From: Candidatus Azotimanducaceae bacterium
GTDB taxonomy: Bacteria > Pseudomonadota > Gammaproteobacteria > Pseudomonadales > Azotimanducaceae
Direction of reading: 5' to 3'
Assembly (NCBI GenBank): GCA_965232595.1
Contig: OZ246983.1
Location: 1,352,022 to 1,416,021 of the forward strand
DNA: 64,000 nucleotides
In this document: positions 7,882 through 9,144 of the stretch, one piece after another
Position numbering within the stretch: position 1 is the first letter of the stretch
How the letters are laid out: the number at the start of each line of letters is the position of its first letter
Notes under the pieces: generated by a model
Seen by the model: only the letters and a program-made list of their open reading frames with translations
The model's database searches: none
What the model was told of the DNA's origin: nothing
Made by a program: the position numbers and the translations under genes

Positions 7882-9144
7882 ATGAATCGAATACTCGTGC
7901 TGGATCCGGAGTCGCAAGAGTCGCGACCCATCGACGCCCTTCTGAGCCTGCTTTCCGCTGCTGAGGGTTTCGATCCCGTGTCGATTTCCGACCTGACCAA
8001 CCTGCCCGAACTGGCCAGCACCGCCAGCGCTCTGCTGTGCCTCTACGAACGGCACGCCGAGGCGCTGGCCAACCGCGCCCTGCCGGTGCTGGTGGTGGAC
8101 GAGGCGGGTGATGTCCGCCGGGCGGTTGCGGCGATCAAGGCCGGCGCCAGCGACTACCTGGTGGCCGACGCACCGGGCGAAGAGCTGCTCGAGCAGATCG
8201 GCCGTGCCATCGCCGAGCACTCCGACGCGGTTGAAAGCGCGTTCCCCACCATCGGTGCCAGCGAGCTGATGCAGACGTTGGCGGAGAGTATTTCCAGAGT
8301 CGGCCCGACGGACTCCACGGTGCTGATTTCCGGCGAGTCGGGCACCGGCAAGGAGCTGGTCGCCCGCGCCATCCACGCCGCCAGCGAGCGCCAGAGCGCG
8401 CCCATGATCACGCTCAACTGCGCCACCATTCCAGGCGATCTGATCGAGTCTGAGCTGTTCGGTGACGCCGACGCTCAGGGCCTGGTAGGCAGCGCCAGTG
8501 GCGGCACCCTGTTTCTGGACGAGGTAGGCGAGCTGCCCGCCGGCGCTCAGGCCCGTCTGCTGCGGCTGCTCGAAACCGAGCACGACCTGCGCCTGATCTG
8601 CGCGACCACCCGGGATCTGGACAGCCTGGTGCAGAGCGGGCAGTTCCGCGGCGATCTCTACTACCGGCTGAAGGTCGTGGGGCTGAAAGTACCGCCCCTG
8701 CGGGAGCGCGGCGAGGATGTGCTGCTGCTGGCGGACGAGATCCTGGCCAGCACCATGGAGAAGCTCGGCAAGCGCGATCTGCACTTCGCCGAAGCCACCC
8801 AGGCGGACATGCGCCGCTACGCCTGGCCCGGCAACGTGCGCGAGCTGGAGAACGCCATTCAGCGAGCGGTGATCCTCTCCGATGGCAGCGCCATCAGCAC
8901 CGCCATGCTCGCCATCGAGCTCACCGAGAGCGACGCCGAAGAGGCTGCCGCAGGCGCATCACCTGATCAGACCATCGAGGATTACTTCGTCAGCTTCGTC
9001 ACGGCTCACCAGGACAACATGACGGAGACCGAGCTGGCCGAGAAGCTGGGCATCAGCCGCAAAAGCCTCTGGGAGAGGCGGCAGCGGCTGAACATCCCGC
9101 GCAAGAAAACCAAAAAGCGAGGCCGAAGAAGAGATGTCAGTTGA
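7882..9144 (+). CDS. Atypical NtrC/CbrB-like AAA+ transcriptional regulator (pseudo-receiver, sigma-54-interaction-type ATPase lacking GAFTGA, C-terminal Fis-type HTH)
   Basis: Present: Walker A GESGTGKE, Walker B TLFLDEVGE, PLRERGEDV, WPGNVRELEN, and the HTH LAEKLGISRKSLWERRQRL. The GAFTGA segment is replaced by the shorter DADAQGLVGSAS. Start at MNRILVLD (ATG 7882). Confidence 0.8.
   Translation: MNRILVLDPESQESRPIDALLSLLSAAEGFDPVSISDLTNLPELASTASALLCLYERHAEALANRALPVLVVDEAGDVRRAVAAIKAGASDYLVADAPGEELLEQIGRAIAEHSDAVESAFPTIGASELMQTLAESISRVGPTDSTVLISGESGTGKELVARAIHAASERQSAPMITLNCATIPGDLIESELFGDADAQGLVGSASGGTLFLDEVGELPAGAQARLLRLLETEHDLRLICATTRDLDSLVQSGQFRGDLYYRLKVVGLKVPPLRERGEDVLLLADEILASTMEKLGKRDLHFAEATQADMRRYAWPGNVRELENAIQRAVILSDGSAISTAMLAIELTESDAEEAAAGASPDQTIEDYFVSFVTAHQDNMTETELAEKLGISRKSLWERRQRLNIPRKKTKKRGRRRDVS

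Follow-up and report, generated by a model that had tools for sequence, protein, structure and literature searches.

The gluQ–pcnB locus and the architecture of gene X

We analyzed a stretch of 64,000 nucleotides (nt) from a Candidatus Azotimanducaceae bacterium (contig OZ246983.1, positions 1,352,022 to 1,416,021 of the forward strand), hereafter the window, and focused on the open reading frame (ORF) at window positions 7882–9144 on the plus strand, hereafter gene X, which we assign below to the regulator CbrB in a degenerate form. The host chromosome is complete (5.18 Mb). Translation of gene X yielded a stop-free NtrC-family protein of 420 amino acids (aa), in which a pseudo-receiver, an AAA+ core, a lid, a helix-turn-helix (HTH) and a basic tail follow one another. 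The nearest named relatives were metagenome-assembled genomes of Candidatus Azotimanducaceae (GTDB order Pseudomonadales), and the start ATG and the full length were common to relatives at 81–85% identity.

The gene row, entirely on the plus strand, is dksA–gluQ–X–pcnB, and the three neighbors of X each exceeded the NCBIfam cut-off: DksA (6517–6978, first of the row; TIGR02420, 174.7 bits versus 115.5), GluQRS, encoded by gluQ (6986–7852; NF004314, 365 bits versus 256) and the poly(A) polymerase I PcnB (9141–10454, directly abutting X; TIGR01942, 455 bits versus 305). No kinase gene adjoins X at this locus, whereas cbrA separates gluQ from cbrB in the canonical relatives. The stop codon of X (TGA, 9142–9144) overlaps the TTG start of pcnB at 9141 as TTGA (9141–9144), corresponding to a spacer of –4 nt; the PcnB model alignment begins at residue 11, and the TTG at 9141 fits the model start. 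At the other end of the gene, an extended –10 element, TGTTAACAT (TGn followed by TAACAT; 7863–7871), lies 10 nt 5΄ of the ATG, without a Shine-Dalgarno sequence.

The Pfam profile PF00158 matched residues 124–268 of X (E = 7e-45) over profile positions 2–167, such that 145 residues stood for 166 positions; an AAA lid (PF25601) and a weak Fis-type HTH were also detected. In NCBIfam, many equivalogs of bacterial enhancer-binding proteins (bEBPs; NorR, NtrC, ZraR and others) matched at approximately 250 bits, and none was a specific family for X, the best matches being far below every equivalog cut-off. We aligned X residue by residue to the structures of ZraR (1ojl) and NtrC1 (1ny5, 4l4u), and found a 9-residue gap exactly over 'hekgaftga' (loop L1) and a 12-residue gap over the L2/pre-sensor-I hairpin. 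The L1 stretch of X is a stub of 12 residues (DADAQGLVGSAS, aa 195–206, 8464–8499), compared with 21 (HEKGAFTGAxxxRxGLVEAAD) in canonical CbrB orthologues; it is thus 9 residues below the norm and contains no GAFTGA. Similarly, seven residues (ETEHDLR, aa 231–237, 8572–8592) occupy the L2 stretch, where canonical CbrB orthologues have 19.

The remainder of the ATPase is intact: Walker A (GESGTGKE, aa 151–158, 8332–8355), the Walker B Asp-Glu pair (D213 and E214, 8518–8523), FRGDLYYRL, PPLRERGED and WPGNVRELEN were all present, with the arginines of FRxDLYYRL and PPLRER and the NVRELEN sensor II unbroken. The Walker A Lys, the Walker B Asp-Glu, the glutamate-switch Asn, the arginine fingers and sensor II showed no or almost no variation across 105 homologues with identities as low as 50% (G151, G154, G156, K157, D213 and E214 being invariant). 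In the AlphaFold2 model (mean predicted local distance difference test 87.7), helix 220–231 passes straight into strand 237–242 and the L2 hairpin is absent. The best fold matches of this model were NtrX, which likewise lacks GAFTGA, and the inactive NtrC1 dimer, and the AAA+ domains of NtrC1, PspF and LuxO superposed on it at 1.6–2.2 Å.

The N-terminal domain (aa 1–115, 7882–8226) was matched only faintly by the receiver profile PF00072 (E = 0.078), in its C-terminal third only. At the receiver columns aligned with canonical CbrB, X has DP in place of the acidic pair ED, Leu in place of the phospho-acceptor Asp (SDLRLPG), Asp in place of the Thr (MTS) and Ala in place of the Lys (AKPF). The model nevertheless displayed a full (beta-alpha)5 receiver fold (E2-7/H15-26/E30-35/H38-45/E50-54/H55-62/E69-73/H78-86/E91-94/H99-119), which a long helix joins to the AAA+ core. 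Because the fold is predicted to be complete while the Asp, Thr and Lys are replaced, we describe this domain as a pseudo-receiver.

An earlier note, made from the letters of this DNA, had described 12 residues where approximately 21 including GAFTGA were expected and seven (ETEHDLR) where approximately 19 were expected, in a core that keeps Walker A, Walker B, PLRERGED and WPGNVRELEN; it had also described a receiver-like domain without the phospho-acceptor Asp and the conserved Lys, the absence of an adjacent sensor kinase gene, and an overlap of the TGA with a putative pcnB start. That description holds in every detail. The structural and CbrB alignments agree with both deletions, as does the shortened PF00158 match, and the list of retained motifs is correct. 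The loss of the Asp and Lys is evident from the comparison with canonical CbrB columns, the neighbors are DksA, GluQRS and PcnB, and the overlap is supported by the PcnB model fit and by its recurrence in most related loci.

Orthology with CbrB and a graded series of relatives

We searched 300 genomes spread over the order with the X protein, and the best match was almost everywhere a gene at 47–58% identity, which stood immediately 5΄ of pcnB in every locus inspected. For example, in a Pseudomonas-like genome the order was gluQ, cbrA (encoding a 984-aa SLC5-type kinase), cbrB, the CrcZ small RNA (sRNA) gene detected by Rfam (320 bits) and pcnB, which is the layout that the earlier note had given for Pseudomonas. 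When canonical CbrB proteins served as queries, X was the best match in its own genome (311–342 bits, 48–51% identity), compared with 290–295 bits and 37–41% identity for the next paralogue, and X is the reciprocal best match of CbrB. The C-terminal HTH (EDYFVSFV...TETELAEKLGISRKSLWERRQRLNIPRKK, which with the following tail TKKRGRRRDVS covers 8977–9141) is near-identical in the two proteins (...TETELAxKLGISRKSLWERRQRL(G/N)IPRKK), the motif ISRKxLWERR being common to both. A maximum-likelihood tree placed X in a 22-member GAFTGA-less clade (support 96/96); this tree requires 2–4 independent losses of GAFTGA, and the orphan lineages have long branches. We regard X as an orthologue of CbrB because of its position between gluQ and pcnB, the reciprocal best match and the near-identical HTH.

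The CbrB-type HTH was present in 72 of the 150 best-scoring representatives at 50% identity, drawn from 1.84 billion proteins, and approximately 50 of those 72 contained no GAFTGA. The derived GAFTGA-less form is therefore diverse and common in environmental data, and regulators of the X type are widespread in environmental Pseudomonadales.

We sampled 121 genomes of the window's family and read their loci (L and G numbers denote loci and genomes sampled in this study, and f numbers denote GTDB families). The loci formed a graded series. At stage (a), locus L144 kept cbrA, GAFTGA and L2, and its 456-bp spacer to pcnB contained TGTTAC/GTAACA sites, TGGCAC-N5-CTGCT and five CA motifs. Eight further families contributed loci of the same appearance; all loci with both cbrA and GAFTGA had a spacer of 450–1200 bp with TGTTAC/GTAACA sites, TGGCAC-N5-CTGCT and 3–13 CA motifs. 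Stage (b) comprises L137, L138, L140 and L143, in which gluQ lies directly 5΄ without an intervening cbrA and the receiver has neither the Asp nor the Lys, with GAFTGA and L2 intact. The spacers of L137, L140 and L143 were 376–544 bp long and contained half-sites (the sequence of L138 ends before pcnB), and those of L140 and L143 kept the sigma-54 promoter and 2–3 CA motifs. The CbrB proteins of these four loci are candidates for activating a short CrcZ-like sRNA through sigma-54 without phosphorylation.

Stage (c) is represented by L136, with GALAGA and a 122-bp spacer. At stage (d) (L083-088, L126-135 and L139), GAFTGA is gone and an insertion of L2 length is kept (degenerate in L127), and the spacers, of –31 to +26 bp, contained neither sites nor a promoter. 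Stage (e) is the window's genus (L082 and L122-125), in which L1 is shortened to 12–17 residues and L2 is excised. No recognisable sRNA elements were found in any sampled locus of the window's family in which GAFTGA is lost. Most of the GAFTGA-less loci, although not all, had a collapsed spacer; L141, L142 and L145 keep 291–709 bp, without sRNA elements. Two of these, which belong to sister lineages of the GAFTGA-less clade, have unusual ATPase motifs: Walker A is altered (GETGAGKK) and Walker B reads LFLDN in L145, and Walker B reads LFLDD in L142. The related genomes, which the earlier note had proposed to survey, therefore display the same deletions as X together with intermediate stages.

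A separate group of loci was observed in family f57 (L101, L155, L156, L157 and L158). In all five, cbrA is present, the receiver is intact (ED...SDLRLPG...KPF) and L2 remains, whereas GAFTGA of the CbrB protein is deleted or degenerate (DEERAGRIEEAD; HEKDALPGA). Their spacers to pcnB keep TGTTAC/GTAACA sites and 3–5 CA motifs, without TGGCAC-N5-TTGC; in place of the sigma-54 promoter there is a conserved TTGCAA-N17-CA(c/a)TAT, which is sigma-70-like by sequence. Family f57 represents an independent and less radical loss of GAFTGA, and an internal precedent for X.

We also observed the arrangement of cbrA, cbrB, a CA-rich spacer with CbrB sites and a sigma-54 promoter, and pcnB in at least nine GTDB families of Pseudomonadales (L089-L111 and L144; f12, f26, f29, f34, f36, f47, f48, f52 and f1). 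The Rfam CrcZ model detected only the Pseudomonas-like one among these loci. According to reviews, CbrAB is exclusive to Pseudomonadaceae (PMC8871633); contrary to this statement, cbrA–cbrB–CrcZ-like–pcnB loci exist well outside that family.

Constraint, expression signals and genomic context

We computed the ratio of nonsynonymous to synonymous substitution rates (dN/dS) for X against two relatives at 81% identity. The ratio was 0.10–0.15 for the whole protein (at dS of 0.75–1.1), and differed among its parts, with values of 0–0.02 in the HTH and tail, 0.03–0.10 in the lid, 0.09–0.12 in the AAA+ core and 0.25 in the pseudo-receiver. The basic tail that follows the HTH, (R/K)KT(R/K)KRG(P/R)RRD, is specific to the derived clade, in which its amino acids are conserved even among genes that differ in codon usage.

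The element TGTTAACAT is invariant in the same two relatives. More generally, TGnTAnn(A/C)T was present 6–10 nt 5΄ of the ATG in 18 of 21 loci lacking both cbrA and GAFTGA, compared with 0.06 expected by chance, and it kept its distance from the ATG rather than from the gluQ stop; a Shine-Dalgarno sequence was absent. The element was not found 5΄ of 15 GAFTGA-bearing cbrB genes (12 canonical and cbrA-linked, 3 kinase-less), and the canonical and stage-(b) cbrB genes had ordinary purine-rich leaders. Because this –10-like element sits 6–10 nt from the ATG without a Shine-Dalgarno sequence, it predicts a leaderless or near-leaderless X–pcnB mRNA. We also considered autoregulation through a TGTTA(A/C)C sequence overlapping the –10 element and dropped it as speculation: TGTTAC occurred in only approximately 7–8 of the 18 promoters, and a partner half-site was not conserved.

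At the 3΄ end, the (T/G)TGA overlap between the X stop and a TTG or GTG start of pcnB occurred in most GAFTGA-less loci, across genera, and no terminator-like site was found on the plus strand between dksA and the end of pcnB. The co-expression with poly(A) polymerase that the earlier note had considered possible gains support from this conserved overlap and from the absence of a terminator. Directly 3΄ of pcnB lies a 237-aa P-loop ORF (GPIGVGKTT; 10526–11239, plus strand), for which no NCBIfam match was found at E = 1e-10; an ORF of similar size recurs at this position in L114, a relative that belongs to a different genus of the family. The gene after pcnB is folK in E. coli and Pseudomonas.

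The genome of the window encodes rpoN and ten bEBP paralogues, nine of which contain a GAFTGA-type motif, X being the only one without it. A tblastn search of the complete genome with a Pseudomonas-type CbrA query found no CbrA orthologue, the best match (108 bits, residues 600–974) being a generic kinase core without the SLC5 part. Rfam CrcZ was found neither in the genome nor in the window, and neither a sigma-54 promoter nor CbrB sites were found next to X at its locus. The search for rpoN, cbrA and crcZ outlined in the earlier note thus recovered only the first. A true Crc may be absent: a Pseudomonas-type Crc query best matched an ExoIII-family protein (C1:1857394-1858155; 117 bits, 34% identity) in which LQE and SDH of the catalytic site are retained and which reaches 277 bits with the xth model. 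In canonical lineages, Crc orthologues obtain 190–290 bits, versus approximately 30–70 bits for ordinary Xth paralogues. Matches of 110–140 bits were observed in most genomes of the family, and given such intermediate-scoring ExoIII-like matches, we dropped the presence or absence of Crc as a clean correlate.

Probable re-purposing of a CbrB descendant and comparison with known systems

On the available sequence and modelling evidence, X is probably a local descendant of CbrB that has been re-purposed as a DNA-binding AAA+ regulator needing neither sigma-54 nor phosphorylation. We strongly infer this twofold independence, because exactly the links of a bEBP to sigma-54 (L1 and L2) and to a kinase (Asp, Thr and Lys) are missing. 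What remains is what DNA binding and nucleotide-dependent oligomerisation require, and the sigma-54 promoter and enhancer that accompany every GAFTGA-bearing orthologue are gone at the X locus. The earlier note had left the choice between a remnant and a re-purposed ATPase; of these, 're-purposed' is the better fit, because dN/dS is low and the clade has newly gained conserved features.

The CbrA/CbrB–CrcZ module was dismantled in the X lineage of Candidatus Azotimanducaceae, and the comparison of relatives suggests the order of events. cbrA would have been lost first, with the receiver turning into a pseudo-receiver; the GAFTGA loop would have gone next, at the same stage as the sigma-54-dependent CrcZ-like sRNA gene and the TGTTAC/GTAACA enhancer sites of that gene; the physical deletion of L1 and L2 would have come last, in the window's genus. 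The X gene would have gained its own extended –10 promoter, placed for a leaderless mRNA, and the overlap of its stop with the pcnB TTG would allow X and poly(A) polymerase to be produced from one coupled unit. X would bind DNA via its CbrB-type HTH; ATP binding, and possibly hydrolysis, would serve oligomerisation, and X would thereby repress or activate sigma-70-type promoters in the absence of both sigma-54 and phosphorylation. Input would come via the pseudo-receiver or through the expression level.

Several observations weigh against re-purposing as a DNA-binding regulator. As a positive control, we recovered the published CbrB site, TGTTAC-N12-14-GTAACA-N15-19-GTAACA (PMC8871633), 3΄ of canonical cbrB genes. 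However, TGTTAC-N10-16-GTAACA had 0 perfect matches in the genome of X, TGTTAC-N11-15-GTAACA with at most one mismatch occurred six times compared with 11–17 times in shuffled sequences and was thus not enriched, and the CbrB palindrome was detected in 2 of 20 GAFTGA-less genomes, no more often than its reversed control. A scan of all spacings from 0 to 40 did yield a 17-bp palindrome, TGTTAC-N5-GTAACA, with 11 copies at up to one mismatch versus 3 for the reversed control (C1:942690, 1756713, 5131682, 1594234 and seven more, all outside the window), and identical versions such as TGTTACCTAAAGTAACA recur in many genera of the family. We rejected it as an operator of X because it persists in relatives that have no X (G307 and G304), and it is probably the operator of some other regulator. 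Furthermore, the degenerate Walker motifs of L145 and L142 suggest that ATP hydrolysis is dispensable in those lineages, and for this reason it would not be universally required in the clade. In addition, the constraint on X could partly reflect a role as the upstream cistron of pcnB.

The last point touches on a different explanation, namely that X is a decaying remnant whose frame stays open only because pcnB translation needs ribosomes that terminate at the overlapping stop. The loss of the kinase, phospho-site, GAFTGA, L2 and sRNA target, the long branches of the orphan lineages and the degenerate Walker motifs in some of them would all fit such decay. However, dN/dS of 0.10–0.15 overall and 0–0.02 in the HTH, at dS of 0.75–1.1, is difficult to reconcile with it, as are the confidently predicted fold and the invariance of both Walker motifs, sensor II and the arginine fingers among 105 homologues with identities as low as 50%. 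Conservation over 420 residues would be superfluous in a leader cistron, and we consider a remnant very unlikely. Even less credible is that X still activates sigma-54 RNA polymerase through a non-canonical contact. The genome encodes rpoN and X has an intact ATPase site, but the two loops that would touch sigma-54 are physically missing, and the promoter and enhancer sites accompanying every GAFTGA-bearing cbrB are gone. GAFTGA is required for the sigma-54 contact (10.1101/2023.06.06.543975).

A more serious rival, although still an unlikely one, is that X is no longer mainly a transcription factor, and instead has a role tied to poly(A) polymerase and RNA metabolism or acts as an anti-activator with the nine canonical bEBPs; for example, PcnB synthesis could be set by translational coupling, the basic tail could contact PcnB or RNA, or mixed dead rings could form. 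The overlap with pcnB is conserved across genera, the tail RKKTRKRGPRRD is new and conserved, the arginine fingers and oligomer interface are retained, and no DNA target of X was found among CbrB-type palindromes in its own genome and the 20 GAFTGA-less genomes, all of which is compatible with such a role. However, adjacency to pcnB is inherited from the cbrB–crcZ–pcnB ancestor and not newly selected, and the most constrained part of X is a classical Fis-type HTH of the same type as that of CbrB, which binds DNA (PMC6296734).

Re-purposing as a DNA-binding regulator may be taken further. In this bolder form, which we put forward tentatively and judge rather unlikely as a whole, CbrB would have been turned family-wide into a kinase-free, sigma-54-free AAA+ DNA-binding protein with a leaderless mRNA and obligatory translational coupling to pcnB, whose job could be to link a metabolic or ATP signal to RNA polyadenylation and turnover, or to control a new sigma-70 regulon. 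If the re-purposing is real, the graded intermediates would constitute a natural stepwise record of the rewiring of a sigma-54 activator: loci with the kinase, loci without it, loci with GAFTGA decay and loss of the sRNA target, and loci with both loops excised stand side by side in one family, and f57 shows an independent route in which the kinase and sRNA are kept and the promoter type is swapped. The successive stages thus make it possible to test how a sigma-54 circuit comes to be taken apart and put to new use. The current name of such proteins, 'sigma-54 dependent transcriptional regulator', is almost certainly wrong. To our knowledge, GAFTGA-less bEBP homologues are represented by a handful of cases, the origin of which has not been documented. 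We searched the literature for CbrB proteins that are orphan or lack GAFTGA, and for a link between CbrB and pcnB, and found nothing relevant.

X shares with CbrB of the CbrA/CbrB–CrcZ–Hfq/Crc carbon catabolite system (Pseudomonas and Azotobacter) the gluQ–pcnB locus, the three-domain order, 48–51% identity over the AAA+ and HTH regions and a near-identical HTH (LGISRKSLWERRQRL). It differs in having no CbrA, no receiver Asp, Thr and Lys, no GAFTGA and no L2 hairpin; a downstream crcZ-like sRNA, a sigma-54 promoter and TGTTAC/GTAACA sites were not found at its locus, and it has instead its own extended –10 (predicted to be leaderless), the stop/start overlap with pcnB and an added basic tail. 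The CbrB proteins of f57 resemble X in that GAFTGA is deleted or degenerate; unlike X, they keep CbrA, the intact receiver, L2, the CbrB sites and a CA-motif sRNA, and their case resembles the switch of Rhodobacter capsulatus NtrC, here on a CrcZ-like sRNA.

GAFTGA-less bEBPs that act at sigma-70 promoters include NtrC of R. capsulatus and Caulobacter, NtrX and VpsR (10.1101/2023.06.06.543975; PMC6158489). Repression of sigma-70 promoters is also possible for classical bEBPs (PMC6296734; PMC12754779). Like X, these NtrC proteins and alphaproteobacterial NtrX are receiver–AAA+–HTH proteins in which L1 with GAFTGA is deleted and the ATP motifs are kept. However, they retain a cognate kinase and a phosphorylatable Asp, neither of which X has, and X differs further in the loss of L2 and in its descent from CbrB rather than from NtrC or NtrX. 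VpsR of Vibrio cholerae and TyrR/PhhR are also bEBP-derived and without a functional GAFTGA, and VpsR and TyrR act with sigma-70 RNA polymerase. VpsR can function without being phosphorylated, although its conserved Asp remains, and c-di-GMP is its ligand; the sensor domains of TyrR are of the ACT/PAS type. X has no evident ligand or sensor and belongs to a different orthologous group. TyrR is a precedent for a GAFTGA-less regulator that acts with sigma-70, and in TyrR, ATP binding drives hexamerisation and hexamer-dependent repression. Compared with these known GAFTGA-less cases, X, for which the range of evolutionary intermediates is unusually complete, is more radical, being an orphan with a pseudo-receiver, with both loops gone, predicted to be leaderless and coupled to pcnB.

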